Of a stretch of 64,000 nucleotides of DNA, positions 17,884 to 40,594 are shown piece after piece. Below the pieces are notes generated by a model. That model had not been told where the DNA came from and did not search any database. It saw nothing but the letters and a program-made list of their open reading frames with translations. Source of the DNA: Nanobdellota archaeon (GTDB lineage Archaea; Nanobdellota; Nanobdellia; CSSed11-243R1); assembly GCA_021163365.1 (NCBI GenBank), contig JAGGWW010000006.1:4123-68122 (forward strand). Reading direction: 5' to 3'. The translations under genes and the position numbers were made by a program. The first letter of the stretch is position 1, and each line of letters starts with the position of its first letter.

Positions 17884-17981
17884 CCCCGCGTAGCTCAATG
17901 GTAGAGCGCTCGGCTGTAGTTGGTTTAACTGGAATTTCAGTTGAAACCGAGAGGTTGCTGGTTCGAATCCGGCCGCGGGGA
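17884..17981 (+). tRNA. tRNA-Tyr(GUA) with canonical-position intron
   Basis: Acceptor CCCCGCG/CGCGGGG with C1:G72 (archaeal Tyr identity). Anticodon stem CTCGG/CCGAG, loop CTGTAG then ~26-nt intron, T-arm GCTGG-TTCGAAT-CCGGC. Confidence 0.6.
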
Positions 17982-17982
17982 T

Positions 17983-18159
17983 GCCCCGATAGTCTAGGCG
18001 CCCTTTCCGCCTTCTTTAGAAAAGAAGGCAGGTTGCCAAGAAAGGGTGGGGAAATGGCCTAGGATCCCGGTCTGTCGAGCGACCTTTTCAGAGAAAAGCT
18101 CGAAAAAGAAGAGGTCGTGTAGCAAGCCGGGGACCCGGGTTCGAATCCCGGTCGGGGCG
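17983..18159 (+). tRNA. tRNA-Asp(GUC) with D-loop intron (carrying a nested insertion) and anticodon-loop intron
   Basis: Acceptor GCCCCGA/TCGGGGC. Anticodon loop CTGTCGA between CCGGT/GCCGG. T-arm CCGGG-TTCGAAT-CCCGG. D-loop interrupted by CGCCCTTTCCGC...GAAAGGGTGGGGAAA. Starts 1 nt after tRNA-Tyr. Confidence 0.6.
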
Positions 18160-18191
18160 CTTTCTTTTAATTTGGAAAATTGTGAGCGTAA

Positions 18192-18701
18192 ATGAAAATA
18201 ATACCAACTGAATTCCGTAATGAAACTAACATATTTACAATTTCTGAGAGCGAGTTATTAGAATTAATTAAATATGCTTTAAAAAATCAAAATGAAATAG
18301 GTGGAAAATTTGAAAATGGAAAATTACAAATAAAAACCTTTGACAGCTGGGTGCCAAAGGAATACAGAATTCATTCTCACCCAAATGGTATTGCATTCCC
18401 ATCTGAAGGAGATATAGACTTGATGATTAATTACATGGGTGGAGGAGTATATCACACAATTGTTGGAGTTAGAAGCGATTTAAAAAGAGCAGTTATCCGC
18501 TCTTATAATATGAAGTTTCAATTAGAAAGAGTTTTAATAAAAACAGAAAAAGGCGCGTATAGTGAAATAAGATATAAAGATGGTGAGCTATCATATTTAT
18601 TTGAAAAAAGAGAAAATGTTCAAATGTGTATAAAAAACATGTGCGATTTTTTACACTTGCAAATGCCTGAGAGCTTCAATAATATGATAATTAATCTTTA
18701 G
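18192..18701 (+). CDS. JAB/MPN+ (JAMM) metalloprotease domain protein
   Basis: HSHPNGIAFPSEGD matches the JAMM motif H.H.(7)S.(2)D, with an upstream Glu (EIGG). Confidence 0.6.
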   Translation: MKIIPTEFRNETNIFTISESELLELIKYALKNQNEIGGKFENGKLQIKTFDSWVPKEYRIHSHPNGIAFPSEGDIDLMINYMGGGVYHTIVGVRSDLKRAVIRSYNMKFQLERVLIKTEKGAYSEIRYKDGELSYLFEKRENVQMCIKNMCDFLHLQMPESFNNMIINL

Positions 18702-18800
18702 CGAAAAGTATATAAATACAAAAAAAAGCCATAAATGATATGTTATGGCTTGCGAAAACCCAATTTTTAGAGAAATTTCTATCAACATTTAATTCATCAA

Positions 18801-18901
18801 GGGCCCGTAGCTCAGCCTGGCAGAGCACCTGTTCAGCTTATGATCTTGCTGAGGTGAAGCTTTTAACCAGGGGGTCAGGGGTTCAAATCCCCTCGGGCCC
18901 A
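18801..18901 (+). tRNA. tRNA-Lys(UUU) with putative non-canonical intron in the anticodon stem
   Basis: Acceptor GGGCCCG/CGGGCCC; D-arm GCTC-AGCCTGGCA-GAGC. Removing ~27 nt (TTCAGCTTATGATCTTGCTGAGGTGAA) yields stem CCTGG/CCAGG around loop CTTTTAA. Confidence 0.55.
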
Positions 18902-18914
18902 TATTGGTGATACA

Positions 18915-19148
18915 ATGGAGATAGACATATTCAAAAACAAACTTGTACCAAAAAGCAGAATTTTAAAGGAAGAAGAAGAAAAGGAATTATTAGAAAAATA
19001 TAACATAAGCAAAAAACAACTTCCAAGAATATTAGTTTCTGATCCTGTTGCTAAAGCATTAAATGCAAAACCCGGGAATATAATTGAATTTACAAGAGAA
19101 AGCAAAACAGCAGGTATGTCAAAATTTTATAGAGTGGTGGTTGCTTAA
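18915..19148 (+). CDS. rpoH: DNA-directed RNA polymerase subunit H (Rpo5)
   Basis: 77-aa ORF immediately upstream of rpoB2 in the canonical archaeal operon position. Confidence 0.75.
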   Translation: MEIDIFKNKLVPKSRILKEEEEKELLEKYNISKKQLPRILVSDPVAKALNAKPGNIIEFTRESKTAGMSKFYRVVVA

Positions 19149-20644
19149 TGGATAAAGAAACATCACAATTTTTGTTGAAAAAATATTTTGAAAGTAGGTC
19201 ATTTGTAGATCATAATATTAACTCATTTAATAAATTCATAAAGTATGGGATGCAAAGAGTTATTGATGAAGTTGGAGAAATAGTTCCAGACATTCTTCCA
19301 ATTGGTGTTAGAGATTTAAAAATAAAATTTGGAAAAGTCTGGGTTGAAAAACCAATCATAAAGGAAGCAGATGGTTCAAGAAGAAAAATAATGCCAATTG
19401 AAGCAAGACTTAGAAACCTAACATATGAAGCCCCAATTCTTGTAGAAATGAGTGTGATACAAAGTGGTGAAGAAAAAGATAAACAAACAGTTCAAATTGG
19501 AAGTATTCCAATCATGTTGCGTTCTGAAAATTGCTATCTTCATGGGTTAAGCAAAGAAGAATTAATTGAAGCTGGCGAAGACCCAAGCGACCCGGGTGGC
19601 TACTTCATTATAAACGGTACAGAAAGAGTTGTTGTAATAGTTGAGGATCTTGTAACAAATAAACTTTTAGTTGATGAGCAAAAAACAGGCACATTCCCTT
19701 ATGTTGGAAAGTTATTTAGTGAAGATGGGCAATATAACATTCCGCACACATTAGAAAAAGCAAAAGATGGGATAATATATATTTCATTTACAAAACTTCA
19801 AAAGATTCCTGTTGCCATATTAATGAAAGCATTGGGATTAGTAAAAGATAAAGACATAGTTGAAGCAATTTCAACTGATGAGAAGTTTTCATCTGATTTA
19901 TATATCAATCTATATGAAGCAAAAGACATAAAAAAAGTTGAAGATGCTCTTGAATATCTTGGCAAAAAAATGGGTATAATGGTGCCTGAAAAAAGAATAG
20001 AAAGAGCAGAAGAGATGATAGACAAGTTCTTTTTCCCGCATATTGGACATTCAAAAGAAGATAGAATTACAAAAGCATATTTCTTAGCAAGATGTCTTAA
20101 GAAACTGCTGCTTGTCTCATATGGTGATGTTGCACCAGATGATAAAGACCACTATAGTAATAAGAGATTAAGGCTTTGTGGTGATTTATTAGAAAACTTA
20201 TTTAGATTTTCATTTAGAATGCTCGTTGGTGATATGAAATATAATTTTGAAAGATTAGTAAAAAGAGGAAAAATACCAAATCTTCAATCAATTGTAAGAG
20301 CTCAACTATTGACATCAAGATTAAGAAGCGCCCTTGCAACTGGTGAATGGATTGGAGACAGACATGGAATATCGCAACACCTTGATAGATTAAACTATTT
20401 TGCAACATTATCTCATATAAGAAGAGTTGTCTCGCTTTTAACAGCAAGTAGGGAGAACTTTGAAGCAAGAGACTTACACCCAACACATTGGGGAAGACTT
20501 TGTACATCAGAAACACCAGAGGGTGTAAACGTAGGACTTAGAAAGAACCTTGCTATAACATGTGAAATTTCAACAGAACCTGAAATGTCTGAAGATGAAA
20601 TCATTTCAAAACTTAAAAAAATAGGATTACAGAGGGTAAGATAA
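19148..20644 (+). CDS. rpoB2: DNA-directed RNA polymerase subunit B'' (Rpo2N)
   Basis: 498 aa, N-terminal half of split RpoB. Operon order H-B''-B'-A'-A''. Confidence 0.9.
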   Translation: MDKETSQFLLKKYFESRSFVDHNINSFNKFIKYGMQRVIDEVGEIVPDILPIGVRDLKIKFGKVWVEKPIIKEADGSRRKIMPIEARLRNLTYEAPILVEMSVIQSGEEKDKQTVQIGSIPIMLRSENCYLHGLSKEELIEAGEDPSDPGGYFIINGTERVVVIVEDLVTNKLLVDEQKTGTFPYVGKLFSEDGQYNIPHTLEKAKDGIIYISFTKLQKIPVAILMKALGLVKDKDIVEAISTDEKFSSDLYINLYEAKDIKKVEDALEYLGKKMGIMVPEKRIERAEEMIDKFFFPHIGHSKEDRITKAYFLARCLKKLLLVSYGDVAPDDKDHYSNKRLRLCGDLLENLFRFSFRMLVGDMKYNFERLVKRGKIPNLQSIVRAQLLTSRLRSALATGEWIGDRHGISQHLDRLNYFATLSHIRRVVSLLTASRENFEARDLHPTHWGRLCTSETPEGVNVGLRKNLAITCEISTEPEMSEDEIISKLKKIGLQRVR

Positions 20645-22446
20645 TGGTAAATGTGTTTTTAAACGGAAGATACATTGGAGAACACAAAGACCCTGCTTCA
20701 TTCATTGAGAAAATAAAAGAAATGCGTAGAAATGGTAATTTGCCTACAGAACTTAATGTTGCTTACTATAAAGAAGAAGACAGCATTTATATATTAACAG
20801 ATAAAGGAAGAGCAAGAAGGCCTTTAATTGTTGTAAAAGATGGGAAACCATTACTCACAAAAGAACATATAGAAAAATTAAAGAAAAATGAAATAAGTTG
20901 GGATGACTTAGTAAAACAAGGTGTTATAGAATATCTTGATGCAGAAGAAGAGGAAAATGCCTACATTGCACTTGATGAAAAAGACTTAACACCAGAACAC
21001 ACACATCTTGAAATCTCTCCAACCATAATAATGGGTCCACAAGCAAATATGGTTCCTTATGCTCAACATTCATTAAGTTATCGTATTACACTTGGAGCAA
21101 AAATGACAAAACAAGCATTAGGGCTTTACACAGCTAATGTACCAATAAGAGCTGACACAGATGTAAGCATAATTCATTATCCACAAATACCAATTGTAAA
21201 AACACAAATGTATGATTTGTTAAAAGTTGAAGACCATCCAATTGGCCAAAATGTTGTTGTAGCAATAATGCCATTTGATGGATATAATATTCAAGATGCA
21301 ATTGTAATTAACAAAGGTAGTATAGAAAGGGGATTATTTAGAGCAACAACATACAGACCTTACAAATGTGAAGAATTAAGATATCCTGGAGGACAAACAG
21401 ATATAATAAAAATCCCTGATAAAGATATAAAAGGATATAGAACAGAACATGCATATAGATATCTAGAAGAAGATGGTATAATTGTTCCTGAAGCAGAGGT
21501 TGGCCCAGGAGATGTTCTTGTTGGAAAGGTTTCTCCACCAAGATTCCTTGCAAGCTTAGAAGAATTTAGAGTTGGAACTGAAGCGCAAAGAGAAACATCT
21601 ACAACATTACAACATGCTGAACAAGGAATTGTGGAATCTGTTTTAATCTCAGAATCAGAAGAAGGGAACAAATTTGTGAAAGTAAAAGTTAGAGACGAAA
21701 GAATACCAGAGCTTGGAGACAAATTTGCATCAAGGCACGGACAAAAAGGTGTTGTTGGATTAATTGTCCCAGAAGAAGATATGCCATTCACAGCAGATGG
21801 AATTATTCCAGATATTATTTTCTCACCACACTCAATACCAACACGTATGACAGTTAGCCACTTAATTGAAGTGCTTGGTGGAAAGGTTGGGGCTCTTTAT
21901 GGAAAGTATGTTGATGCAACAGCTTTCCAAAGCATGAGTGAATTTGAACTAAGAAAAATGCTTAAAGAAGCTGGATTTAGAGAAGATGGTTCTGAAATAA
22001 TGTATGATGGAAGAACAGGAGAAGAGATAAAAGCAAGGATATTCATAGGAAGCCAATACTATTACAGACTTAAACACATGGTTGCAAATAAGATTCACGC
22101 AAGAAGCAGGGGACCTGTACAGCTTTTAACAAGACAACCAACAGAAGGAAGAGCAAAAGAAGGAGGATTAAGACTTGGAGAAATGGAAAAAGATTGTTTA
22201 GTAGGGCATGGTGCATCATTACTATTAAAGGAAAGGTTTGATTCTGACAAAACAGTGCTTCCAGTTTGTAAAAAATGTGGTTTAGTTGCTATTTACAACA
22301 AATATAAGAATAAAACAATGTGTCCTGTTTGTGGAGAAAATGCTCCTGTAACATTTGTAGAAATGTCATATGCATTTAAGCTTTTGCTTGATGAACTTAA
22401 ATCAATGGGTATATATCCAAAACTTAAGATAAAACCAAAGTATTGA
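20644..22446 (+). CDS. rpoB1: DNA-directed RNA polymerase subunit B' (Rpo2C)
   Basis: 600 aa C-terminal half of RpoB. Conserved GDKFASRHGQKG and C-terminal Zn ribbon CKKCG...CPVCG. Confidence 0.9.
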   Translation: MVNVFLNGRYIGEHKDPASFIEKIKEMRRNGNLPTELNVAYYKEEDSIYILTDKGRARRPLIVVKDGKPLLTKEHIEKLKKNEISWDDLVKQGVIEYLDAEEEENAYIALDEKDLTPEHTHLEISPTIIMGPQANMVPYAQHSLSYRITLGAKMTKQALGLYTANVPIRADTDVSIIHYPQIPIVKTQMYDLLKVEDHPIGQNVVVAIMPFDGYNIQDAIVINKGSIERGLFRATTYRPYKCEELRYPGGQTDIIKIPDKDIKGYRTEHAYRYLEEDGIIVPEAEVGPGDVLVGKVSPPRFLASLEEFRVGTEAQRETSTTLQHAEQGIVESVLISESEEGNKFVKVKVRDERIPELGDKFASRHGQKGVVGLIVPEEDMPFTADGIIPDIIFSPHSIPTRMTVSHLIEVLGGKVGALYGKYVDATAFQSMSEFELRKMLKEAGFREDGSEIMYDGRTGEEIKARIFIGSQYYYRLKHMVANKIHARSRGPVQLLTRQPTEGRAKEGGLRLGEMEKDCLVGHGASLLLKERFDSDKTVLPVCKKCGLVAIYNKYKNKTMCPVCGENAPVTFVEMSYAFKLLLDELKSMGIYPKLKIKPKY

Positions 22447-22455
22447 GGGAGAAAC

Positions 22456-25065
22456 ATGAATGAGATAATAAGAGACAAAATTGGAGCAATTGAATTTAGA
22501 ATGCTTTCTCCAAAGCTAATTAAAAAGATGGCTGTTGTTAAAGTAATAACACCAGAACTTTACGATGCAGATGGTTATCCAATTGATGGTTCTCTTATGG
22601 ATTTAAAGATGGGTGTAATTGACCCAGGATTGCGCTGCAGAACATGTGGTGGAAAAGTAAAAGAATGTCCTGGCCACTTTGGATACATTGAGTTAGCAAG
22701 ACCTGTTTTTCATATAAGATACATTCCTTTGATATACATATTCTTAAGAAGCACATGCTCATCATGTGGAAGACTTTTGTTGCCACAAGCAGAGATAGAT
22801 AAATGGCTAAAAAAGATGTCCGAAGTTGATGATGAGAAAAAAGCAATTATAACAAAGATAATAATAAATAAAACAAAGTTAATTAAAAAATGTCCGCATT
22901 GTGGTGCAAAACAAGAAAGAATTAAGCTTGTTAAACCTTCCACCTTTATGCAAGGTAGCACAAAACTTACACCAATTGATGTTTTAGAAAGATTAAAAAG
23001 AGTTCCAGATACAGATTCAGAACTTTTAGGAATATCTCCAGCAGCTGGAAGGCCAGAATGGATGGTTTTAACTGTTTTGCCTGTTCCACCAGTTTCTGTA
23101 AGGCCATCAATTACACTTGAGTCTGGAGAAAGAAGTGAAGATGACTTAACACACAAGCTTGGTGATATTGTAAGAACAAACCAAAGATTGCTTGAAAACC
23201 TAAGTGCTGGAGCTCCAGAGCTTATAATAGAAGACCTTTGGGATTTGTTGCAATATCATGTTACAACTTTCTTTGCAAATAACATAGCGCAGATTCCTCC
23301 TGCAAGACACAGAAGTGGAAGGCCACTTAAAACACTTACAGAAAGAATTAAAGGAAAAGAAGGAAGATTTAGAAAGAATCTTGCAGGAAAACGTGTGAAT
23401 TTCTCAGCAAGAACAGTAATTTCTCCTGATTCTCACTTAGCTGTTAATGAAGTTGGAGTTCCAGAAGTAATAGCGAGAGAATTAACAGTCCCAGAAAGAG
23501 TTACAGAATGGAATTTGAAAGAAATGAAAGAGCTTGTTAAAAATGCTCCACATAAATACCCAAGCGCAAATTATGTTATAACACCAGATGGCAAAAGAAA
23601 GGTTATTTCTGATGAAACACGTGGTGCAATACTTGAAGAACTTGCACCAGGATATATTGTTGAAAGACACTTAAGGGATGGAGACATTGCATTGTTTAAT
23701 AGACAGCCATCATTACATAGAATAAGCATAATGGGACATAGAGTAAAGGTTTTACCATACAAAACATTTAGAATGAACTTATGTGTAACAATTCCCTACA
23801 ATGCAGACTTTGATGGAGACGAGATGAATTTACACATTCCGCAAACCGAAGAAGCAAGAGCTGAAGCAGAGATTCTTCTTGGTGTTGAAAATAATATTGT
23901 AACACCAAGATATGGTCTGCCAATAATTGGCGCAATTCAAGACCAAATAACAGGATGCTATTTGCTAACAAAAACAGAAGAATTGTTTTCACAAGAAAAA
24001 GCTGCTGAATTACTTGCAAGTATTGGTATTTTTGAATTACCAAAGAAGCCAGCTATGAAAAAAGGTGGTGTTAAGTACTACACTGGAAAGCAAATATTTT
24101 CAATGATATTGCCAGATATAGATTACATAGGAACATCAAAAAATTGCCCATACCATAATGTGTGCAATAATCCTGATTGCAAATATAAAAAAGTAATAAT
24201 AGAAAAAGGGGAATTAAAGCAAGGAGTTATTGATGCAATAGCCATTGGTGCAGAAGCACCAAAAGGAAAGCTAACACAAGCAATTATTAATAAATATGGA
24301 AATGAAGTTGCAATTGATTTCATTCAAAAAGCAGCTTTGCTTGGAATTAACTTCTTGCAAAGACATGGATTCACAACTTTACTTACTGATACAGATTTAC
24401 CACAAGAAGCAATAAGAGAAATAAAAGATGCATTTAATCATGCTGAAAAGAAAATTGATGAAATAATAAAAGAATATCATGAAGGTAAACTAAAGGCATA
24501 CCCTGGAAGAACAGTAAGGGAAACACTTGAATTTAAAATAATTGAAATAATAAACAGGGCAAGAAACAGAACTGGAAGAATTGTGGAAAGTTATGTTAAG
24601 CCAAATAATTACACAATGATTATGGCAAAATCTGGAGCAAGGGGGGGTGTATTGAACTTAGCGCTTATGGCAGCATCTGTAGGACAGTTAAGCTTAAGAG
24701 GAAGCAGAATTAGAAAAGGATATAGAAATAGAACACTCCCACACTTTAAGTGGGGTGACATAGGTCCAGCAGCTGGTGGTTTTGTAAGACACTCTTATAA
24801 AGGAGGATTAACACCAACAGAATTTTTCTTTAATGCAATAACAGGTAGGGACACAATCATGGACACCTCAATGAGAACACCTAAATCAGGTTATCTTCAA
24901 AGAAGACTTATAAATGCATTGCAAGACTTAAAAGTAGAATATGATAACACAGTTAGAGATGCTTCAGGAAGAATAATTCAATTCACATATGGTGCTGATG
25001 GTTTAGATGTAACAAAATCAGACCATGGAAAGTTATTAATTCCAAAGGAGGAAGTGCTCAAATGA
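22456..25065 (+). CDS. rpoA1: DNA-directed RNA polymerase subunit A' (Rpo1N)
   Basis: 869 aa. [10 protein letters not shown] catalytic motif. N-terminal Zn-binding CRTCGGK..CPGHFG. Confidence 0.9.
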
Positions 25066-26455: not shown

Positions 26456-26459
26456 TATT

Positions 26460-26882: not shown

Positions 26883-26909
26883 AGTTTATAAAGGAATTAA
26901 ATTTAAGGT

Positions 26910-27356: not shown

Positions 27357-27360
27357 TAAA

Positions 27361-32781: not shown

Positions 32782-32867
32782 TCACCTCACCTATGAAATC
32801 AAGAAGTTCTCTATTTAATTATTTTTGGTTTAGTAAGGTTTATATGCAATAAAATAATAGAAGAAGT

Positions 32868-33476: not shown

Positions 33477-33512
33477 TTAAATGTTATAAACCACCTTTTC
33501 CTTTCTTTATCT

Positions 33513-34238: not shown

Positions 34239-34761
34239 ACAGGTTATAAAAATACCAAAAGAAAGGGTTGCAGTACTTATTGGTGTAAAAGGAAAAACAA
34301 AGAAAGAAATAGAGGAAAAAACAAACACAAAGATAAGGGTTTCAAAAGAAGGAGAAGTCTCAATTAGGGGGGATTCTTTTGATGCATGGCTTACAAAACA
34401 GATTGTGAAAGCCATTGGTAGAGGTTTTTCTCCAGAAAAAGCTCTTTTATTATTAGATGAAAACTACGGATTAGAAATCATAGAGCTAAGGGATTGGGCA
34501 AAAACAAAAAACTCTTTAACAAGACTTAAAGGAAGAGTTATTGGTGAAAAAGGAAAGGCAAAAAGAACAATAGAGAATTTAACAGAAAGTTATATATCTG
34601 TGTATGGTAAAACAATTTGCATAATAGGAGAAACAAGAAAGATGCCAGCAATTAGAAGAGCAATAGAAATGCTTTTATCTGGAAGCAGACATGCAACAGT
34701 ATACAGAATGCTTGAAAATGAAAGAAAAATTTGGAGAAGACAAGAACTTTTAGGTGAATAA
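34225..34761 (+). CDS. KH-domain RNA-binding protein (Dim2/Pno1-like)
   Basis: Two KH-like segments (IGVKGKTKKEIE; IGEKGKAKRTIE). Conserved neighbour of rio in archaea. Confidence 0.7.
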   Translation: MEEYEQVIKIPKERVAVLIGVKGKTKKEIEEKTNTKIRVSKEGEVSIRGDSFDAWLTKQIVKAIGRGFSPEKALLLLDENYGLEIIELRDWAKTKNSLTRLKGRVIGEKGKAKRTIENLTESYISVYGKTICIIGETRKMPAIRRAIEMLLSGSRHATVYRMLENERKIWRRQELLGE

Positions 34762-36613
34762 AATGCCAAAAGAAGTTGAGATTGCTGAAAAACTTGGAGA
34801 AAGAATGAAAGCAGTATCAGTAGCTGAGTTTTTCAAGAAAAATAAGCACTTGCTTGGATTTGATAATCCATTGAAATCAATGCTTGTTGTTGTTAAAGAA
34901 GCTGTTGATAATGCTCTTGATGCAACCGAGGAATACGCTTATGAGTTGCAGAAAAAAGGAAAAGAAATAGAATTTCCTGAAATAAAAGTTGAAATCAAAA
35001 AGGAAGAACATGGTCTTGTAATCATCCCAGAAGGAAGCGATATACCCATTGCCGATTTGGTAAAAACTGGAAAAAGAAACTGGGATTTGGTTTTATTTGG
35101 AAAAAGATTAAGAGCATCTAAAGTTGAGGGTAATACAAAAGAATACAATGTTGAAGGAAGAAAAGTGAAACTTGTTTTTACGAGTGCAATAAAACCACAA
35201 GTTTATGTTGATGGTGTAAAAGCAAGTGTGAAAGAAAGAACATTAAAGTATAAGGTAAGTGTTACAGATAATGGTCCTGGTATAATAGAAAGTAAAATCC
35301 CTAATGTTTTTGGAAAGCTTCTTTATGGTTCAAAATTCCATAGGCTAAGACAATCAAGAGGACAGCAAGGAATAGGTATATCTTCAGCAGTTCTTTATGC
35401 TCAACAAACAACAGGAATACCTGCAAGAATAACATCAAAAGTAAAAACAAAAAGCAAAGCTGTTGTTATGGAAATTTCAATTGCTGATAACAACGAACCA
35501 ATAATCCATTCAAAAGAATATGTTGATGGCTTTGATTATGAACATGGAACAAAAGTAGAGTTAGTTATAGAAGCAGATTACAGAGAAAGTGGTGAAAAGT
35601 CAGTTTATGAATTTATAAGAAGAACAGCAATTGTTAATCCACATGCAACTTTCATATTAATTGAGCCAAACAAAAGAAAAACTGTTTTTAAAAGGACATC
35701 AAACAAATTGCCAAAAGAACCAAAGGAAATAAAACCACACCCACACGGACTTGAGTTTGGTAAACTTAAAGACATGCTCATAGCAACAAAAGCAAGAACA
35801 ATCAAATCGTTTTTAGTAAACGACTTGTCAAGAGTTAGCTCACAAATGGCGGACAATATATTAAAAAAAGTTAACATAGATGCAAACAAAAAACCAGCAG
35901 AGCTAACAAGACAAGAAATTGAAAAACTATTAAGAGCATTACATAAAGCACCATTGCAAAGACCATCTACTGATTGTTTAAGTCCAATAGGTGAAAATGC
36001 CTTAAGAAAAAGTATTCTTGCTGATACAAAAGCAGAATTTGTAGCTGTTGTTTCAAGAAAACCAACTGTTTACAAAGGTATTCCATTTTTAGTAGAAGCT
36101 GCAATAGCTTATGGTGGAGAAATAAAAAGTGAAGGAATGGCTCAAAGACTTAGATATGCGAATAAAATCCCATTACTATATGATGCAGCAGGGTGCGCAA
36201 CAACAAAAGCAATTCAAGAAATGAATTGGAAGCAGTACAAGGTTCAAAGTGTTGCTCAAAATGGTGTTCCAATGGGTCCTTATGTTATTTTAATTCACCT
36301 TGCAAGTGTTTGGGTGCCATACACATCAGAGGGTAAGAGTGCAATTGCAAGCTATCCAGAGATAATAAAAGAAATGAAGCTTGCCCTACAAGATTGCGCA
36401 AGAAAGTTAAAATCTTACTTGGGAGCAAAGATTAGAGAAGCAATAAAAGCTCAAAGAGTTAGTTTGTTTGAAGCGTATATGCCAGAATTTGCATTAGCAT
36501 TATCAAAGATTATTGGAGTAAAAGAAGATGAGATAAAAAAAGATTTAGTCAAAGTTTTATCAAAGCTAAATAAATTAAGAGCTAAACAAGAAGGGGAAGA
36601 AAATGAGAAATAA
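34754..36613 (+). CDS. top6B: DNA topoisomerase VI subunit B
   Basis: GHKL ATPase Bergerat fold (VDNALDA; TDNGPGI). Confidence 0.85.
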   Translation: MNKMPKEVEIAEKLGERMKAVSVAEFFKKNKHLLGFDNPLKSMLVVVKEAVDNALDATEEYAYELQKKGKEIEFPEIKVEIKKEEHGLVIIPEGSDIPIADLVKTGKRNWDLVLFGKRLRASKVEGNTKEYNVEGRKVKLVFTSAIKPQVYVDGVKASVKERTLKYKVSVTDNGPGIIESKIPNVFGKLLYGSKFHRLRQSRGQQGIGISSAVLYAQQTTGIPARITSKVKTKSKAVVMEISIADNNEPIIHSKEYVDGFDYEHGTKVELVIEADYRESGEKSVYEFIRRTAIVNPHATFILIEPNKRKTVFKRTSNKLPKEPKEIKPHPHGLEFGKLKDMLIATKARTIKSFLVNDLSRVSSQMADNILKKVNIDANKKPAELTRQEIEKLLRALHKAPLQRPSTDCLSPIGENALRKSILADTKAEFVAVVSRKPTVYKGIPFLVEAAIAYGGEIKSEGMAQRLRYANKIPLLYDAAGCATTKAIQEMNWKQYKVQSVAQNGVPMGPYVILIHLASVWVPYTSEGKSAIASYPEIIKEMKLALQDCARKLKSYLGAKIREAIKAQRVSLFEAYMPEFALALSKIIGVKEDEIKKDLVKVLSKLNKLRAKQEGEENEK

Positions 36614-37688
36614 AAAGGACGTAAAGAAAAAATTGGAAGAACTTGGAAAAACATTATATAAAGAAATAAAAGAAGGAAAAAATCCTTTCTTAGACATTCC
36701 AATAAGGGCATTGTCTAATGTTTATTTTAATCCAAAAACAAAGTTGATTGAGCTTGGAGATGCAAAGTCTAGAAGGTATTTCTTTAATGTTGCACATATA
36801 AGAAAATTTGTCCAAACAATTGAGGTTGCATCGCTTGCAAAAGAGCTTTTAGACGTTAACAAACATTTAAGCTTAAGACAGGTTTTCTATGCAATACGTA
36901 AAACTTTACCTGGAACCAAAATAGACATTGTTGAAGATCAAACAGAAAGTAATCAAGCAATTGAAGATTTAGAACTAATTACTGGTGCATCAAGAGAGGA
37001 ATTACATATAAATGCAAAGAAAAGTGGTGCAGCAGCTGGTAAAATTATCATTAAGGATAAAGGAGATACAATTGATTGGTCAAAGTTAGGAAGCGGTGGA
37101 TGGTCAATTCCATCAAACACAGAAGACATTGAGTTTAAGAAGGTGGATGCAAAGTTTGTAATTTATATGGAAAAAGATGCAATGTGGGAAAGACTTCACG
37201 AAGATAAAGTGTGGGAAAAGCTTAAATGTGTTATAATCGCGTCGCAAGGGCAAGCAACAAGAGGGATAAGAAGGCTTTTGAGAAGGTTAAGTGATGAACA
37301 TGGTTTACCAATTTATGTTCTAACAGATTTTGACCCATGGGGTTTTTACATCTATTCTGTGTTAAAATATGGCTCAATTGCGCTTGCACACATTTCAAAA
37401 AAATTAGCAATACCAAATGCAAAGTTCCTTGGATTAACAGCAGAGGATATAAAGAAATACAAACTAGAAAAACAGAAAATTAAGTTTAAGGATGTTGATT
37501 TAAGAAGATTAGAGCAAATAAAAGAATATGAATGGTTTAAAGATGATAAAAGATGGCAAAGACAATTTAAACTTATGAAAGAAATGAAGGGAAAGGTTGA
37601 ACTTGATGCTCTTGTTACAAGAGGTATAAGCTTTGTTTCAAATGTATATCTTCCAGAGAAAATAAAAAACAAAGATTGGATTGATTGA
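36603..37688 (+). CDS. top6A: DNA topoisomerase VI subunit A (Spo11-like)
   Basis: 361 aa following top6B with overlap. Toprim region (VLTDFDPWG). Confidence 0.85.
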   Translation: MRNKKDVKKKLEELGKTLYKEIKEGKNPFLDIPIRALSNVYFNPKTKLIELGDAKSRRYFFNVAHIRKFVQTIEVASLAKELLDVNKHLSLRQVFYAIRKTLPGTKIDIVEDQTESNQAIEDLELITGASREELHINAKKSGAAAGKIIIKDKGDTIDWSKLGSGGWSIPSNTEDIEFKKVDAKFVIYMEKDAMWERLHEDKVWEKLKCVIIASQGQATRGIRRLLRRLSDEHGLPIYVLTDFDPWGFYIYSVLKYGSIALAHISKKLAIPNAKFLGLTAEDIKKYKLEKQKIKFKDVDLRRLEQIKEYEWFKDDKRWQRQFKLMKEMKGKVELDALVTRGISFVSNVYLPEKIKNKDWID

Positions 37689-37731
37689 TCAGGAAAAGCT
37701 TTTAAAATACTAACTCTAAGTATATACAAGT

Positions 37732-37908
37732 GCCCGCGTAGCTCAAAACCCTTTCCGCTGACGCGCAAAGCGTTTACGGAAAAGGTTGGCGAAGTGGTAG
37801 AGCGGCAGCCTGTTAAGCTGTAGGTCGCAGGTTCGAACGCACCCTTTCTTAAAAGAAAGCGTGCACGGAAAGAAAATCCGTGGGTGCTCGGAAGTCCTGC
37901 CGCGGGCG
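37732..37908 (+). tRNA. tRNA-Asn(GUU) with D-loop and T-loop introns
   Basis: Acceptor GCCCGCG/CGCGGGC; anticodon stem-loop GCAGC-CTGTTAA-GCTGT. D-loop carries AACCCTTTCCGCTGACGCGCAAAGCGTTTACGGAAAAGGTTGGCGAAG. T-arm GCAGG-TTCGAAC..[~55 nt]..CCTGC. Confidence 0.6.
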
Positions 37909-38133
37909 CTTTAACAATACTCTCAAGCATGCTTGGATAAGAGCAGAAGGAAGAGGCATAGGTGCTGAAACAGTAAAATACCATTTATTGCCAGATAAAT
38001 TAGAAAGAGTTTGCAAAAGTAGAAATATGACAATACAATTGTACTTGATATATATACCTGCGCACGCTATCGCAATATCCAAAGCCATTGCGGTGAGCGA
38101 GAAGTAATAATTAAATTTATTAATGTCAATCTT

Positions 38134-38358
38134 TTGAAAAATATCATGGTGAGCACAAGAGGAGCTGTAATAGGAATCTTGATTATGTTTCTTGGCTTTT
38201 TTATAATCTATACATTTGTTTCACCAGATTTTTTATTTTCAATAGGAATAGATATTAAAACATACAACGCCATACATCAACAATGGGGATTTTGGGGGCC
38301 TGCAATAGGTGTTGCAATTGTACTTGCTGGATTAATTGCAATGGGAAAATTTAGTTGA
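38134..38358 (+). CDS. small hydrophobic membrane protein (hypothetical)
   Basis: 74 aa with two TM helices. Confidence 0.3.
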   Translation: MKNIMVSTRGAVIGILIMFLGFFIIYTFVSPDFLFSIGIDIKTYNAIHQQWGFWGPAIGVAIVLAGLIAMGKFS

Positions 38359-38576
38359 TTAAAATGGGGATTGGAAAAATCTTTTTTGGTGTTGGAATAA
38401 TTGTCATTGGGATAGTTATATGGTTCTCCTTATTTAGTGATATGTTAAATGTGTTCATAGAGTCTCCTCAAGAAAGATATAATTTTAGAGAAACGATTAG
38501 AAGATTTCAAACAATTTACTTCCTTATAATAATATTAATTGGTGTGGGTTTTGTGCTTTGGGGTTCGCAGACGTAA
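38355..38576 (+). CDS. small hydrophobic membrane protein (hypothetical)
   Basis: 73 aa with two TM helices. 4-nt overlap with the preceding ORF. Confidence 0.3.
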   Translation: MIKMGIGKIFFGVGIIVIGIVIWFSLFSDMLNVFIESPQERYNFRETIRRFQTIYFLIIILIGVGFVLWGSQT

Positions 38577-38610
38577 CTTTTAAAAGCTAATTTTAATTTC
38601 ATTTGTATAC

Positions 38611-38764
38611 GGCCCGGTAGCTTACAACCCTTTACGCTTCGCGCAAAGCGTTGACGGAAAGGGTTGGCGAAGCCTGGTTAGAGCGCTGGTCTTATATGAC
38701 GCATAGGGAATTTCCCTATGTCTAAGCTAACCAGAGGTCCGGAGTTCAAATCTCCGCCGGGCCA
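38611..38764 (+). tRNA. tRNA-Ile(UAU) (putative) with D-loop intron and canonical anticodon-loop intron
   Basis: Acceptor GGCCCGG/CCGGGCC plus A. Mature D-arm TAGCTTAG-CCTGGTTAGAGCG after removing CAACCCTTTACGCTTCGCGCAAAGCGTTGACGGAAAGGGTTGGCGAA. Anticodon stem CTGGT/ACCAG; loop CTTATA then 32-nt intron with hairpin CATAGGGAATTTCCCTATG, then A. Confidence 0.5.
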
Positions 38765-38770
38765 TTTAAG

Positions 38771-40012
38771 GTGATAACTATGAAGGTTGCAATGTTTACA
38801 GACACCTTTTTACCAAACAAAGATGGTGTTGTAACATCAATTTGTAATCATGTAAAAGGATTGAAAAAAAGAAACATTGATGTAGTTATATTTGCTCCTG
38901 GAGAAAAAACTAAGTTAGATGAATATTTTGGAGCAAGGGTTTATTATATAAAAGGTTTAGAATTTAAGAAATATCCTGGTTATAAAATTGTTCTTCCAAC
39001 AAAGTTTATCTCAAGGATAAATGCATTTTTAGAAATTGAAGAGCCAGATATTTATCATATTCATTCTCCATTCTCTCTTGGAATTGCTGGGATGTTATTT
39101 TCTTCAAAGTTCAAAAAGCCAATTGTTGGAACATTTCATACTTACTTAGAAGATTACATTGGATATCTGTTTAATGGAAATGAGAGTAGGGAGTTTTACG
39201 CTACAAAAAAAATTCTTGGCATGACGTCATGGAATTACTTTAGGTTTATTTTTAACAAATGCAGTTTTGTAATTTCTCCAACTAATGAAATTGCAAAAGT
39301 CTTAAGAAAAAAAGGATTTAAGAATATTGTAGTTGTTCCAAGTGCTGTTGATTTTGATTATCTTGATAAACAAAAAAAGATAAACATAAGAAAAAAGCAT
39401 AAGATTCCAAAAGGTTACAAAATAATTCTTTATGTTGGAAGGCTTGGATTTGAAAAGAAACTTAATGTTTTACTTGACGCGTTTAAAATGCTTAATGGAA
39501 AAAATTACTTACTTATTGTTGGAAAAGGACCTTTTGAAAAGAAGTACAAAGATTATGTAAGGAAAAACAAAATCAAAAACGTGAAATTCGTTGGGTATGT
39601 TAAAGACGAAGAGCTTTCAAGTTATTACAGGAGTTGTGATTTATTTGTAAGCCCATCAGATACAGAAACGCAAGGATTAACTCTTGTTGAAGCTATGCAT
39701 TTTGGAAAACCAGTTATAGGTGCAAATAGACTTGGTGTAAAAGAAGTAATTGCTGATTACAAAAATGGATTAAAATTCGAGCCAAACAACTCTCTTGATT
39801 TAAAAGAAAAAATTGAAAAATTGTTGAATGATAAAAAGTTATATAAAAAGATAAGCAAGAATGCAAAGGAGTGTTCTAAGAAGTATTCCATTGAAAATTC
39901 AACAAATAAGTTGATGAAAGTCTATAAAAAATCAAAATACGAAAAACTTGAAATAAAAGATATTAAAAGAAAATTAAGCAAAAGATTTAAAAGCATTTTA
40001 AATTTTGTTTAG
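38771..40012 (+). CDS. glycosyltransferase family 4
   Basis: GT-B fold. C-terminal EAMHFGKPVI...G region typical of GT4. Confidence 0.75.
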   Translation: MITMKVAMFTDTFLPNKDGVVTSICNHVKGLKKRNIDVVIFAPGEKTKLDEYFGARVYYIKGLEFKKYPGYKIVLPTKFISRINAFLEIEEPDIYHIHSPFSLGIAGMLFSSKFKKPIVGTFHTYLEDYIGYLFNGNESREFYATKKILGMTSWNYFRFIFNKCSFVISPTNEIAKVLRKKGFKNIVVVPSAVDFDYLDKQKKINIRKKHKIPKGYKIILYVGRLGFEKKLNVLLDAFKMLNGKNYLLIVGKGPFEKKYKDYVRKNKIKNVKFVGYVKDEELSSYYRSCDLFVSPSDTETQGLTLVEAMHFGKPVIGANRLGVKEVIADYKNGLKFEPNNSLDLKEKIEKLLNDKKLYKKISKNAKECSKKYSIENSTNKLMKVYKKSKYEKLEIKDIKRKLSKRFKSILNFV

Positions 40013-40017
40013 TGTAT

Positions 40018-40173
40018 GCTCCGGTAGTCTAGGCGCCCTTTCCGCTTAGAAAGGGTGGGGAAATCCGGCCAAGGATACCGGCCTTTCGAAATCAGAACCC
40101 CGGTGGGTTCCGATACCTCCTGCGACGTGGTTGGAGAAAGCCGGTGACCCGGGTTCAAATCCCGGCCGGAGCA
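40018..40173 (+). tRNA. tRNA-Glu(UUC) with D-loop intron and anticodon-loop intron
   Basis: Acceptor GCTCCGG/CCGGAGC plus A. Mature D-loop AGTCCGGCCAA after removing ~31 nt (GCGCCCTTTCCGCTTAGAAAGGGTGGGGAAA). Anticodon stem ACCGGC/GCCGGT with loop CTTTCGA, then ~50-nt intron. T-arm CCGGG-TTCAAAT-CCCGG. Confidence 0.6.
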
Positions 40174-40196
40174 TTGAAAAGAAAGTGTGAGAAAAA

Positions 40197-40313
40197 ATGA
40201 AAAGAAGCTCACGAGTTTGGAAAAAAAGAAGACAATGTAGATGGAGAACAAGAAAAAAAAGAATTAGAGAAAGAAAGAGAAAGAGAAGGCAAGAAAGAGC
40301 AAGAGCTAAGTAA
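40197..40313 (+). CDS. rpl41e: ribosomal protein eL41 (L41e), very short basic peptide
   Basis: 38-aa ORF MKRSSRVWKKRRQCRWRTRKKRIRERKRKRRQERARAK is almost entirely Arg/Lys, like eL41. Below the 60-aa threshold of the ORF track. Confidence 0.5.
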   Translation: MKRSSRVWKKRRQCRWRTRKKRIRERKRKRRQERARAK

Positions 40314-40365
40314 TCTAATTCTTACAAAATGTTTAAATATGGTTTTAATTTAGATAAATGTGAAT

Positions 40366-40513
40366 GCGGGGGTGTCCGAGCCTGGCCAAAGGAGCAGGAC
40401 TTAAGTGCCAGTGCTAAGGAATCCTGTGCCTTAGTGGCTGCGAGGGTTCAAACCAGCCTTTCTTAGAAAGAAAGCCTGGGGAAAGAAAGGTTGTGAGATT
40501 CCCTCCCCCCGCA
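40366..40513 (+). tRNA. tRNA-Leu(UAA) with anticodon-loop intron and T-loop intron
   Basis: Acceptor GCGGGGG/CCCCCGC plus A; D-loop AGCCTGGCCAAA. Anticodon stem CAGGA/TCCTG with loop CTTAAG, ~15-nt intron, then A. Variable arm GCC-TTAGT-GGC. T-arm GAGGG-TTCAAAC..[~50 nt with CCTTTCTTAGAAAGAAAGCCTGGGGAAAGAAAGG]..CCCTC. Confidence 0.55.
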
Positions 40514-40522
40514 TTCGTACAT

Positions 40523-40594
40523 GGCCCGAGTAGTTTAACGGTAGAACGAGAGGCTGTGGCCCTCTTGGCCGGGGTTCAACTCCCCGCTCGGGCC
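40523..40594 (+). tRNA. tRNA-His(GUG), intron-less, with encoded G-1
   Basis: G-1 plus acceptor GCCCGAG/CTCGGGC, discriminator C. D-arm GTTT-AACGGTA-GAAC. Anticodon stem-loop AGAGG-CTGTGGC-CCTCT. T-arm CGGGG-TTCAACT-CCCCG. Confidence 0.8.

Follow-up and report, generated by a model that had tools for sequence, protein, structure and literature searches.

Multiply interrupted tRNA genes and related rRNA mini-introns in a DPANN archaeon

[quoted passage not shown] Positions 30/31, 53/54 and 59/60 are all listed as tRNA intron sites (PMC4090602), and an L3 loop in DPANN EndA has been linked to more extensive disruption of tRNA genes (PMC5829648). In ARMAN-2 (Candidatus Micrarchaeum acidiphilum; Fujishima et al. 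2011, PMC3239211), 56% of tRNA genes are described as interrupted, with non-canonical positions, several introns per gene, BHB motifs of the strict as well as the relaxed kind, a tRNA-Pro(GGG) interrupted at 53/54 and 59/60, and a tRNA-Ile(UAU) with a 37/38 intron; according to the same account its EndA is an epsilon2 enzyme, and three ARMAN lineages have Ile(UAU) in place of the CAU/agmatidine system. For the Thermoproteales, summaries of a 2010 study (PMC4090602, PMC4033280) report highly similar introns across tRNA species at canonical and non-canonical sites, a similarity that points to late intron gain constrained by the BHB requirement at the new site. Nanoarchaeum equitans and Staphylothermus have a split tRNA-Lys, broken at 30/31 of the anticodon stem and processed through a BHB (Chan et al. 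2011, cited in PMC4090602), and in Thermoproteales and Desulfurococcales BHB-flanked insertions, presumably removed by EndA, interrupt universally conserved 16S and 23S rRNA (e.g. Jay and Inskeep 2015, PMC4496867).

Here we describe a 64,000-nt stretch of DNA (the window, in whose numbering all positions are given) containing ten tRNA genes (Pro, Tyr, Asp, Lys, Asn, Ile, Glu, Leu, His and Ala), all on the + strand, together with archaeal SSU rRNA, LSU rRNA and RNase P RNA. The host is an uncultivated DPANN "Nanoarchaeia" archaeon of ~32% GC, its RpoB'' being 79–86% identical to that of DPANN 'Nanoarchaeota/Nanoarchaeia' MAGs, and belongs to a different DPANN lineage from ARMAN-2. Nine of the ten genes are interrupted, by 15 introns of 15–58 nt, and only tRNA-His lacks one (Table 1). 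The canonical 37/38 site is occupied in six genes (Tyr, Asp, Ile, Glu, Leu, Ala). Five further introns interrupt the D-loop, at 14/15 in Asn and Ile and at 15/16 in Pro, Asp and Glu, give or take a few nt; the others lie at 30/31 in Lys, 53/54 in Pro, and 59/60 in Asn and Leu. As in ARMAN-2, then, many genes are interrupted, some repeatedly and at non-canonical sites, tRNA-Pro(GGG) has a 53/54 intron, tRNA-Ile(UAU) has one at 37/38, and strict and relaxed motifs both occur; compared with what is described there, D-loop introns are found in half of the window's tRNAs. tRNA-Lys shares the 30/31 break of the split genes, but its halves are contiguous around a 27-nt cis intron and its anticodon is UUU rather than CUU.

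Table 1. Positions and supporting observations for tRNA genes, introns and a leader module in the window
Feature	Length (nt)	Site	Position	Strand	Observations
tRNA-Pro(GGG), 2 introns			13800..13981	+	acceptor and T-arm scan; cloverleaf test
Pro D-loop intron, A-type	48	15/16	13815..13862	+	central helix GUCU/GGGC 4/4, inner 9 bp
Pro T-arm intron, A-type	58	53/54	13904..13961	+	central helix CCCG/CGGG 4/4, inner 4 bp
tRNA-Tyr(GUA), C1-G72 pair			17884..17981	+	Rfam tRNA 61.5 bits; sequence
Tyr intron	26	37/38	17920..17945	+	central helix 3/4, outer 5 bp
tRNA-Asp(GUC), G73, 2 introns			17983..18159	+	sequence; cloverleaf test; spliced form accepted by ARAGORN
Asp D-loop intron	57	15/16	17998..18054	+	central helix 3/4, inner 9 bp
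Asp intron, strict hBHBh'	47	37/38	18078..18124	+	central 4/4, outer 7 bp, inner 11 bp; BHB in MFE fold
tRNA-Lys(UUU)			18801..18901	+	Rfam 51.5 bits
Lys anticodon-stem intron, strict hBHBh'	27	30/31	18832..18858	+	central CACC/GGUG 4/4, outer 4 bp, inner 5 bp
tRNA-Asn(GUU), G73, 2 introns			37732..37908	+	sequence; cloverleaf test; spliced form accepted by ARAGORN
Asn D-loop intron, B-type	48	14/15	37746..37793	+	central 3/4, inner 4 bp contiguous
Asn T-loop intron, A-type	57	59/60	37838..37894	+	central UUCG/CGGA 4/4, outer 5 bp; BHB in MFE fold
tRNA-Ile(UAU), 2 introns			38611..38764	+	cloverleaf test
Ile D-loop intron, B-type	47	14/15	38625..38671	+	central 3/4, inner 8 bp
Ile intron, strict BHB	32	37/38	38697..38728	+	central CUUA/UAAG 4/4, outer 5 bp, inner 4 bp
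tRNA-Glu(UUC), 2 introns			40018..40173	+	sequence; cloverleaf test; spliced form accepted by ARAGORN
Glu D-loop intron	31	15/16	40033..40063	+	central 3/4, inner 9 bp
Glu intron	50	37/38	40089..40138	+	central 4/4, outer 7 bp, inner 5 bp
tRNA-Leu(UAA), class II, 2 introns			40366..40513	+	sequence; cloverleaf test; spliced form accepted by ARAGORN
Leu intron	15	37/38	40406..40420	+	central CUUA/UAAG 4/4, outer 6 bp
Leu T-loop intron, strict hBHBh', A-type	47	59/60	40453..40499	+	central 4/4, outer 5 bp, inner 11 bp
tRNA-His(GUG), encoded G-1, no intron			40523..40594	+	ARAGORN; Rfam 64.5 bits
A-type module copy, outside mature rRNA		16S 5' leader	41418..41460	+	nhmmer E=0.005
16S mini-intron 1, B-type	46	conserved GGAUUAGAU|ACCC	42335..42380	+	Rfam alignment; central UUAG/CUAA 4/4
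16S mini-intron 2, neither A nor B	43	GCUGAA|ACUUAAAGG	42500..42542	+	Rfam insertion; central GCUG/CAGC 4/4
16S mini-intron 3, A-type	45	hairpin loop CCGUG|AGGCG	42708..42752	+	central ACCG/CGGU 4/4, inner 10 bp
tRNA-Ala(UGC), G3:U70, between 16S and 23S genes			46671..46784	+	Rfam 59.7 bits; UGC in every passing excision
Ala intron, poor BHB	42	37/38	46707..46748	+	central helix 2/4
23S mini-intron 1	87	domain V loop GAGCUCAU|AUCGAC	49825..49911	+	central 3/4, inner 18 bp
23S mini-intron 2, A-type	47	domain V loop GUGCAGCA|GCAGCC	49969..50015	+	central 3/4, inner 10 bp

To locate the introns, all possible excisions of one or two segments were scored against a strict cloverleaf definition only, amounting to 420 excisions for each single-intron gene and 0.7–1.1 million for each double-intron gene. 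The passing excisions were confined to narrow windows of a few nt for all 15 introns, D-loop boundaries floating by up to ~10 nt under these rules. For tRNA-Pro, 38 of 1,077,475 excisions passed, every one with anticodon GGG, and the start of the 53/54 intron was restricted to 13904–13905. The anticodon was likewise the same across all passing excisions for Ile (UAU, 66 of 66), Asn (GUU), Ala (UGC) and Lys. In an Rfam scan, five tRNAs reached the gathering score and two others gave weak matches. ARAGORN accepted the spliced sequences, which is weak evidence alone because random excisions were often accepted as well.

A preliminary description, made from the letters alone, had already put the interrupted genes at nine of ten, and Rfam, ARAGORN, the cloverleaf test and a BHB scan bear this out; the isotypes and anticodons it assigned, and the number and rough placement of its introns, also hold in the cloverleaf test, the BHB scan and the spliced sequences. 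The anticodon-stem intron it saw in tRNA-Lys near 30/31 is the unique passing solution among the 420 excisions, the two introns it thought probable in tRNA-Pro were both located, and the single nucleotide it noted between Tyr and Asp (17981/17983) is a T at 17982. The D-loop introns it placed around 15–17 are present, at the corrected positions given above, as are the T-loop introns of Asn and Leu, one position away from its ~60/61. It read the Ile anticodon correctly as UAU; calling this rare overstates the case for the lineage, as ARMAN archaea, also DPANN, are described as carrying Ile(UAU) (PMC3239211). The range it gave for all ten genes, 17884–40594, excludes those for Pro and Ala. The ARAGORN run on raw DNA that it proposed as a check found only tRNA-His, plus an 'Arg-tct' that is false and is actually a piece of tRNA-Ala.

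In an independent scan, 14 of the 15 tRNA introns showed a BHB motif or its relaxed HBh' form, and these 14, like all five insertions found in the rRNA genes, have 3-nt bulges and a central helix paired at 3/4 or better. Of the 20 introns together, 10 combine a 4/4 central helix with a flanking helix of 4 bp or more, and 17 do so when a central helix of 3/4 or better is accepted; random site pairs in the window reach these levels in 0.11% and 0.73% of cases, respectively. Whole-precursor MFE folds include the BHB for the Leu 59/60 (a strict 3-4-3 structure), Asn 59/60, Asp 37/38 and Pro D-loop introns, the last with bulge and helices visible. In several A-type introns the pairing that makes the BHB has to compete with a local hairpin, and the MFE fold of the Pro 53/54 intron is a local hairpin, not a BHB. 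The inner helix of the Asn D-loop intron is longer if one mismatch is permitted. A central-helix mismatch is found in seven introns (Tyr, four of the five in D-loops, and both in 23S), and alongside this class the outer helix is slight or absent in D-loop, 53/54 and 23S introns; a broad-specificity enzyme would therefore be needed. A Pfam scan of 30 window ORFs found no EndA or RtcB gene.

It is improbable, though less so than the other alternatives considered below, that the introns are real and some boundaries or anticodons are wrong. In Tyr, Asp, Glu and Leu the anticodon varies with the splice register, cloverleaf rules allowing UGA, GGA or GUA for Tyr, AGC, GGC or GUC for Asp, AGA, UGA, UUA or UUC for Glu, and AGG, UGG, UAG or UAA for Leu; the D-loop registers float as noted, and tRNA-Ala has no recognisable 3-4-3 BHB, a 6x4 internal loop separating its anticodon stem from a 14-bp intron helix in the MFE fold. 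Against such errors, the BHB register gives a single solution per gene, selecting GUA, GUC, UUC and UAA, respectively, and this solution fits identity elements that are independent of the anticodon: C1-G72 in Tyr, G73 in Asp, the long variable arm in Leu and G3:U70 in Ala. G73 in Asn and G-1/C73 in His also agree with the assignments, and no allowed register changes the anticodon of Ala, Ile, Pro, Asn or Lys.

The rRNA insertions, three in 16S and two in 23S, were recognized as excesses over the Rfam models, with 47 inserted nt against 1 for the first in 16S, 46 against 1 for the third, and 89 against 2 and 48 against 1 for the two in 23S. At all five sites the predicted ligation restores the Rfam consensus, the join at 16S mini-intron 1 yielding GGATTAGATACCC and that at mini-intron 2 likewise giving the consensus. 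In Crenarchaeota, most rRNA introns run to hundreds of nt and homing endonucleases are often encoded in them. The rRNA mini-introns of the window differ in being 43–87 nt long and non-coding, and in their homology to tRNA introns from the same genome.

Judged by sequence, most of the introns are members of two families, designated A-type and B-type. An A-type intron has three arms: a left arm rich in pyrimidines, a right arm complementary to it, and a repeat of this right arm. The left and right arms fold into a hairpin that contains a conserved C.C mismatch; the BHB would be formed by the left arm pairing with the second right-arm copy. This definable three-arm layout sets the window introns apart from those of the Thermoproteales as summarised, as do the occurrence of the families at 16S and 23S sites and in the rRNA leader, the existence of module copies outside stable-RNA genes, and the host phylum, DPANN rather than Crenarchaeota. 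Families common to tRNA and rRNA are not mentioned for ARMAN-2, as far as the account in PMC3239211 goes. The Asn D-loop intron is identical at 42 of 47 positions to that of Ile and at 34 of 35 to 16S mini-intron 1, and the Glu and Asp D-loop introns have a common 5' 16 nt and a common 3' tail. Searches with an A-type nhmmer profile gave 23S mini-intron 2 as the top match (E=7e-8) and also 16S mini-intron 3 (E=3e-5), both introns being themselves in the profile's source alignment; the copy in the 16S leader matches the Asn T-loop intron at 32 of 36 positions. The grouping of tRNA introns in sequence families that also supply the five rRNA mini-introns is new here, as is the wide distribution in metagenomes of a related hairpin module, which lies mostly outside tRNA genes.

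That module brings up a second alternative, in which the interrupted genes are pseudogenes hit by a small MITE-like DNA repeat and functional uninterrupted copies lie elsewhere in the genome. The A-type module does occur outside stable-RNA genes, in the 16S leader, as tandem copies downstream of tRNA-Pro in one relative (L003), and in ~104 of 122 metagenome matches, some of them in frame within ORFs and some within a TIR-flanked repeat. We nevertheless regard this reading as very unlikely: it would require nine of ten tRNAs and both rRNAs to be dead, yet the exons show no damage, their stems being perfect and their identity elements in place, all insertions but that of tRNA-Ala bear a BHB, with an intron tail complementary to its own exon, and orthologous interrupted genes occupy the same genomic positions in relatives whose RpoB'' is as similar as stated above. 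Least credible of all is retention of the insertions in mature RNAs as unspliced expansion segments, for although the rRNA insertions are in hairpin loops, sites sometimes tolerant of expansion, they lie in the universally conserved core (GGAUUAGAUACCC and two domain V loops), BHB motifs with correct bulge spacing mark the junctions, and, given established tRNA structure, insertions at 37/38 and 30/31 would ruin anticodon presentation and those in the D- and T-loops the D/T-loop tertiary core.

We consider it very probable that the tRNA genes of this low-GC DPANN archaeon are functional and that archaeal introns of the BHB type interrupt them. In the processing we envisage, precursors would be transcribed first, Tyr and Asp on one transcript and Leu and His, 9 nt apart, probably likewise, and their ends trimmed by RNase P and a 3' nuclease. 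Each intron would form a 4-bp helix with two flanking 3-nt bulges, relaxed to HBh' in the D-loop and 53/54 introns because the exon gives only a 4-nt strand of the central helix. We infer that both bulges are cut by EndA, that exons are joined by an RtcB-type ligase, and the order in which introns are removed; CCA would then be added, and the same machinery would remove the five mini-introns from 16S and 23S.

Comparison with relatives also showed, as a further new observation, near-identical intron copies at non-homologous tRNA or rRNA sites. The Asn 59/60 intron matches a tRNA-Asp 37/38 intron of L001 (47/49 identical), the Asp D-loop intron an anticodon-loop (37/38) intron of L002 tRNA-Pro (47/49), and 23S mini-intron 1 a tRNA-Asp 53/54 intron of L001 (70/82), while the Asp D-loop intron of L002 matches the Pro D-loop intron of L003 (49/51), all with z > 25 against shuffles; the Pro 53/54 intron is identical to its L003 ortholog at 52 of 58 positions. 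Occupancy differs as well. The Tyr 37/38 site holds an intron in L001–L003 too, and these three additionally have a T-loop intron in Tyr and a third intron in each of Asp and Pro, none of which has a counterpart in the window. tRNA-Lys is kept upstream of rpoH/rpoB in 16 relatives, with the 30/31 position occupied in L001–L003 and L008, and without that intron in more distant relatives, namely L007, L009–L012 and L015 and, as blastn suggests, L013, L014 and L016; L004 has a 37/38 intron in its place. The same intron sequences in 16S and 23S and at different sites in close relatives suggest that the introns move between sites, and the families may have spread between tRNA and rRNA by a process like the intron transposition described in the Thermoproteales. 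The relatedness of many of these introns to each other and to the rRNA mini-introns of the window had gone unremarked in the preliminary description.

The nine interrupted tRNA genes were recovered from GC-rich islands combined with a search for acceptor stems adjoining T-arms, which gave no further convincing tRNA candidates in the window, and the uninterrupted tRNA-His was found by ARAGORN and Rfam (table). Acceptor-like matches on the minus strand at 34910, 30927 and 9695 were dismissed as AT-rich sequences away from the GC islands for which Rfam gave no minus-strand tRNA support, as judged by a permissive scan for 30927 and 34910 and at gathering score only for 9695. The set extends beyond 17884-40594, the range given in the preliminary description, since tRNA-Pro and tRNA-Ala fall outside it. 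Most of these genes escape standard tRNA finders. Run on the raw DNA, ARAGORN called one of the ten genes correctly, returning tRNA-His and a false "Arg-tct" that is the 3' part of tRNA-Ala; Rfam reported five tRNAs at gathering score, and a permissive scan added weak tRNA matches at 38671-38764 and 40054-40173. DPANN genomes annotated with such finders will seem, falsely, to be poor in tRNAs.

Interrupted and intact stable-RNA features of the window
Feature	Position	Strand	Detection or Rfam insertion	Site
tRNA-Pro	13800-13981	+	GC islands, acceptor/T-arm scan	
tRNA-Tyr	17884-17981	+	GC islands, acceptor/T-arm scan	
tRNA-Asp	17983-18159	+	GC islands, acceptor/T-arm scan	
tRNA-Lys	18801-18901	+	GC islands, acceptor/T-arm scan	
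tRNA-Asn	37732-37908	+	GC islands, acceptor/T-arm scan	
tRNA-Ile	38611-38764	+	GC islands, acceptor/T-arm scan	
tRNA-Glu	40018-40173	+	GC islands, acceptor/T-arm scan	
tRNA-Leu	40366-40513	+	GC islands, acceptor/T-arm scan	
tRNA-His	40523-40594	+	ARAGORN, Rfam	
tRNA-Ala	46671-46784	+	GC islands, acceptor/T-arm scan	
16S mini-intron 1	42335-42380		Rfam insertion 47 nt	GGAUUAGAUA/CCC
16S mini-intron 2	42500-42542		Rfam insertion 43 nt	GCUGAA/ACUUAAAGG
16S mini-intron 3	42708-42752		Rfam insertion 46 nt	CCGUG/AGGCG
23S mini-intron 1	49825-49911		Rfam insertion 89 nt	domain V loop
23S mini-intron 2	49969-50015		Rfam insertion 48 nt	domain V loop

Candidate splice sites were obtained with a scan for the bulge-helix-bulge (BHB) motif in the form h-H(4 bp)-bulge(3 nt)-h'...h'-H-bulge-h. 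After excision of these candidates ARAGORN drew all ten sequences as canonical cloverleaves. In a control with 500 random excisions per gene, however, it took 17-292 (3-58%) for full-length tRNAs as well, and we rejected the result as proof. We relied instead on an independent, exhaustive test in which all one-segment removals (420 per gene) or two-segment removals (0.7-1.1 million per gene) were filtered for a strict cloverleaf: a 7-bp acceptor stem, U8, A14, a 4-bp D-stem and GG in the D-loop; a 5-bp anticodon stem with a 7-nt loop carrying U33 and a purine at 37; and a 4-5-nt or long variable region, a 5-bp T-stem and a UUCRA T-loop. The solutions always fell in the BHB-scan windows and clustered at single sites in all nine genes, confirming the earlier claim that nine of the ten tRNAs are interrupted.

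The intron of tRNA-Lys had a sole solution, 18832-18858, which places it inside the anticodon stem between nucleotides 30 and 31, where it had been proposed to lie. Introns had likewise been proposed in the T-arm or T-loop of Pro, Asn and Leu, and all three are present: the permitted starts of the Pro 53/54 intron are 13904-13905 only, and the Asn and Leu introns are confined to 5-6-nt windows, around 59/60 rather than the ~60/61 suggested. The anticodon was invariant over all solutions for Pro (GGG), Asn (GUU), Ala (UGC), Lys (UUU) and Ile, where the anticodon UAU read in the preliminary description held in all 66 solutions. The anticodons of Tyr, Asp, Glu and Leu vary with register, the BHB register giving GUA, GUC, UUC and UAA, respectively. 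Identity elements independent of the anticodon are concordant, namely C1-G72 in Tyr, G73 in Asp and Asn, G3:U70 with A73 in Ala, the class II variable arm in Leu and G-1/C73 in His. Taken together, six large ORFs encode isoleucine most often by AUA (181 of 373 codons, with AUU 167 and AUC 25), which fits a dedicated tRNA-Ile(UAU).

Graded by their central helix, nine of the 15 tRNA introns have all four pairs, five have three, and that of tRNA-Ala has two. When the five rRNA mini-introns described below are included, 10 of 20 introns combine a perfect 4-bp central helix with a flanking helix of at least 4 bp, and 17 of 20 do so with at least three of the four central pairs, against backgrounds of 0.11% and 0.73%, respectively, for random site pairs of the window. 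The strict form, hBHBh', is found at 37/38 in Asp, Ile, Glu and Leu, at 30/31 in Lys and at 59/60 in Leu and Asn. The D-loop introns (15/16 in Pro, Asp and Glu; 14/15 in Asn and Ile) and the Pro 53/54 intron have the relaxed HBh' form and lack an outer helix; of the central helix, the exon gives just the 5' strand, from the D-stem or from nucleotides 50-53. The weak case is tRNA-Ala, with a 6x4 internal loop between the anticodon stem and a 14-bp intron helix. Unconstrained minimum free energy folds of whole precursors contain the BHB for Leu 59/60, Asn 59/60, Asp 37/38 and the Pro D-loop intron. Among copies of the A-type intron family described below, the 3' tails vary, each being complementary to its local exon (CGGA versus UUCG in Asn, UGAG versus UUCA in Leu). 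All of the introns are 15-87 nt long, and Rfam scans detected no group I or group II intron families in the window.

The exons of every tRNA are colinear, within 98-182 nt, with no split or permuted arrangement. As previously noted, tRNA-Tyr and tRNA-Asp are one nucleotide apart, a single T at 17982, and tRNA-Leu and tRNA-His are separated by 9 nt, so that each pair must come from a shared transcript. By analogy with established archaeal tRNA and rRNA processing, the introns would be cleaved by EndA and the exons ligated by RtcB, RNase P and 3' trimming would release the tRNAs from the Tyr-Asp and Leu-His transcripts, and CCA, which none of the ten genes encodes, would be added. A Pfam scan identified no EndA, RtcB or TiaS among the 30 ORFs of the window.

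Rfam also identified an archaeal 16S rRNA (41586-43234), a 23S rRNA (47217-50361) and an archaeal RNase P RNA. A CCUUUC...GAAAG theme is common to many of the tRNA introns, and a regular-expression scan located the same theme within the 16S and 23S genes. The rRNA genes contain five non-coding mini-introns of 43-87 nt, all in segments of the rRNA that are universally conserved. A BHB or HBh' motif is present at every one, predicted ligation restores the Rfam consensus at each, and four of the five share sequence families with tRNA introns. The first 16S intron breaks the conserved segment GGATTAGATACCC, which overlaps a site commonly targeted by 16S primers, so that the lineage may be under-detected in amplicon surveys. 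A hairpin in the RNase P RNA (53911-53933) also matched the regular expression; its profile match is marginal (E=0.56), and we took it to be an ordinary stem rather than an intron (the Rfam match is 298 nt, against a model of 288 nt).

Local alignments revealed that introns at non-homologous sites can be nearly identical. Within this one genome, the intron in the D-loop of tRNA-Asn agrees with 16S intron 1 at 34 of 35 positions. In comparisons with close relatives (L001-L003), the 23S intron 1 matches the tRNA-Asp 53/54 intron of L001 (70/82), the Asp D-loop intron of the window matches the tRNA-Pro 37/38 intron of L002 (47/49), the Asn 59/60 intron matches the tRNA-Asp 37/38 intron of L001 (47/49), and the Asp D-loop intron of L002 matches the Pro D-loop intron of L003 (49/51). 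Against shuffled sequences all of these identities have z-scores above 25, and they exceed the 70% similarity between evolutionarily distinct tRNA genes, or between differing positions, that defines the transposed intron groups of the Thermoproteales.

One of the two sequence families, the A-type, has the layout X-C-CUUUCUU, loop, AAGAAAG-C-X', a linker of A plus CC, CGG or GGG, then AAAGAA(GG) and X''. Its left arm forms a hairpin with a conserved C.C mismatch when paired with the adjacent right arm, and the inner helix of the BHB when paired instead with the second right-arm copy. In 146 copies from the window, its relatives and the metagenome matches listed, X and X' are complementary at three or more of four positions in 135, compared with 42% for shuffled partners, and 18 distinct X sequences occur among the fully complementary pairs, indicating that the local hairpin is conserved by covariation. 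In an nhmmer profile search, A-type matches occurred in the window and L001-L003 only, and none was found in the related loci L004-L016. Beyond the training members, the matches in the window were tRNA and rRNA introns, the marginal RNase P RNA match and a copy in the 16S 5' leader, matched by the profile at ~41424-41460. This leader copy (41418-41460) lies outside the mature rRNA and is identical to the Asn T-loop intron at 32 of 36 positions. In L003 (2955-3210), several degenerate A-type copies stand in tandem directly downstream of tRNA-Pro, with no tRNA exons visible.

The window has a GC content of about 32% and encodes RpoB in two parts (19148-20644 and 20644-22446), of which the N-terminal one is 79-86% identical to that of metagenome-assembled genomes labelled Nanoarchaeota, Nanoarchaeia or Nanobdellati archaeon and 53-66% identical to that of "Parvarchaeota", "Woesearchaeota" and other Nanoarchaeia genomes, identifying the organism as a DPANN archaeon. 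The same organism is also present in JGI 3300017593, JGI 3300016457 and ENA ERZ23499535. All 16 related loci have a tRNA-Lys gene upstream of rpoH/rpoB. Besides the window, L001-L003 carry the 30/31 intron, as does L008, where two further introns accompany it; L004 has a 37/38 intron in its place, and the gene is uninterrupted in L007, L009-L012 and L015. The spacing of exons in blastn matches suggests that it is also uninterrupted in L013, L014 and L016. L001-L003 exceed the window in introns, with an extra T-loop intron in Tyr and three introns each in Asp and Pro. These differences in presence and absence indicate that intron content changes quickly within the clade. The tRNA-Lys(UUU) of the more distant L008, labelled 'Parvarchaeota', spans 205 nt (6804-7008) and apparently has three introns, of which that at 30/31 is 83 nt long.

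Interrupted tRNA genes of this kind are already known. Non-canonical positions including 30/31, 53/54 and 59/60, and several introns per gene, have been reviewed (PMC4090602), as has the splitting of tRNA-Lys at 30/31 in Nanoarchaeum and Staphylothermus (PMC4090602). In ARMAN-2, 56% of the tRNA genes are disrupted, with introns at 53/54 and 59/60 in tRNA-Pro(GGG) and at 37/38 in tRNA-Ile(UAU), and Ile(UAU) replaces the TiaS system in all three ARMAN lineages (PMC3239211); the window, too, has introns at Pro(GGG) 53/54 and Ile(UAU) 37/38. tRNAs have been predicted in Pacearchaeota and Woesearchaeota genomes (Kaneta et al., 2018), and similar introns in distinct tRNAs of Thermoproteales have been read as transposition (PMC4090602, PMC4033280). 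In the literature found, whose coverage is incomplete, there was no description of intron families shared between tRNA and rRNA, of the three-arm architecture of the module or of its occurrence outside stable-RNA genes, and we hold with moderate confidence that these three features are new here.

Further copies of the module were sought in metagenomes, where the scan returned at least 120 stretches. A tRNA gene with introns could be recognised around 17 of the 122 matches listed, the match often being in the D-loop; one match lies in a 23S gene, and about 104 lie elsewhere, mostly as the stereotyped AAACCUUUCUUUnnnAAAGAAAGCUUUACCAAAGAAAC on contigs of ~43% GC. The metagenome contexts include intergenic DNA, ORFs and tRNA genes. 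Three metagenome loci, on contigs of ~43% GC, carry in-frame copies inside ORFs: L048 (3387-3419, minus strand), L068 (7755-7787) and L121 (3549-3581). That these are BHB introns of mRNAs was considered and rejected, no motif above background being detected in any of the three. The host ORF in L048 (1934-3820) encodes GlmS, and its PDB alignment is interrupted by ~26 residues between positions 138 and 141 of E. coli GlmS; the module copy coincides with this insertion and, lacking a detectable BHB, is probably translated. In three other metagenome loci (L094, ~1190-1330; L132, ~6300-6450; L058, ~6880-7020) the module lies inside a ~150-nt repeat with AACCACRAGA inverted repeats, which adjoins unrelated genes and looks like a MITE. 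For the module copies no transposase or target-site duplication was identified, and homology among them rests on the ~35-nt module.

What these loci show directly is how exons and introns are arranged, which BHB motifs they carry, how the intron families are related and how introns turn over among relatives. The copies in ORFs, repeats and introns suggest, and do not prove, a small mobile DNA repeat that survives as an intron where a BHB forms. Such a module may move as DNA into many sorts of site, among them intergenic DNA, protein-coding genes, where it is kept in frame, and stable-RNA genes. We tentatively propose, as a possibility that we consider rather unlikely, that the tRNA and rRNA mini-introns are copies of a mobile DNA hairpin module, surviving as introns spliced by EndA where the duplicated arm and a short tail build a BHB with the adjoining exon. 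To our knowledge, there is no settled account of how archaeal protein-spliced introns originated and spread; we know of no vehicle for intron transposition, nor of grounds for inferring it other than the sequence similarity of Thermoproteales tRNA introns. If true, the proposal would explain in concrete terms how archaeal BHB introns arise and spread, and would link tRNA introns, rRNA introns and MITE-like repeats. The window is a very dense case, with 20 BHB introns in 64 kb; near-identical copies at differing tRNA and rRNA sites, in genomes whose RpoB'' proteins are 79-86% identical, suggest recent movement; and the module is also recognisable in free-standing form. These three features bring the mechanism within reach of comparative and experimental tests.

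Further observations concern the arrangement of the rRNA and RNA polymerase genes. Segments of the 16S leader (41540-41570) and trailer (43277-43307) are complementary, gtaggaaggcaacaa..ggttgtg with cacaacc..ttgttgccttcctac; they form the usual archaeal pre-16S processing stem, a further expected EndA substrate. Between the 16S gene and the tRNA-Ala and 23S genes lies a spacer of ~3.4 kb (43235-46670) with four ORFs, namely two without a Pfam match, a metallophosphoesterase and an HD-domain protein (minus strand), so that the rRNA genes are effectively unlinked; tRNA-Ala has its own AT-rich upstream region. At 22444-22458, the TGA stop of rpoB' shares its reading frame with the start codon of rpoA', 12 nt further downstream. 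The two are called as a fused product of 1479 residues in other public assemblies of the same organism, which is probably no real fusion but an effect of the genetic code chosen by the gene caller.
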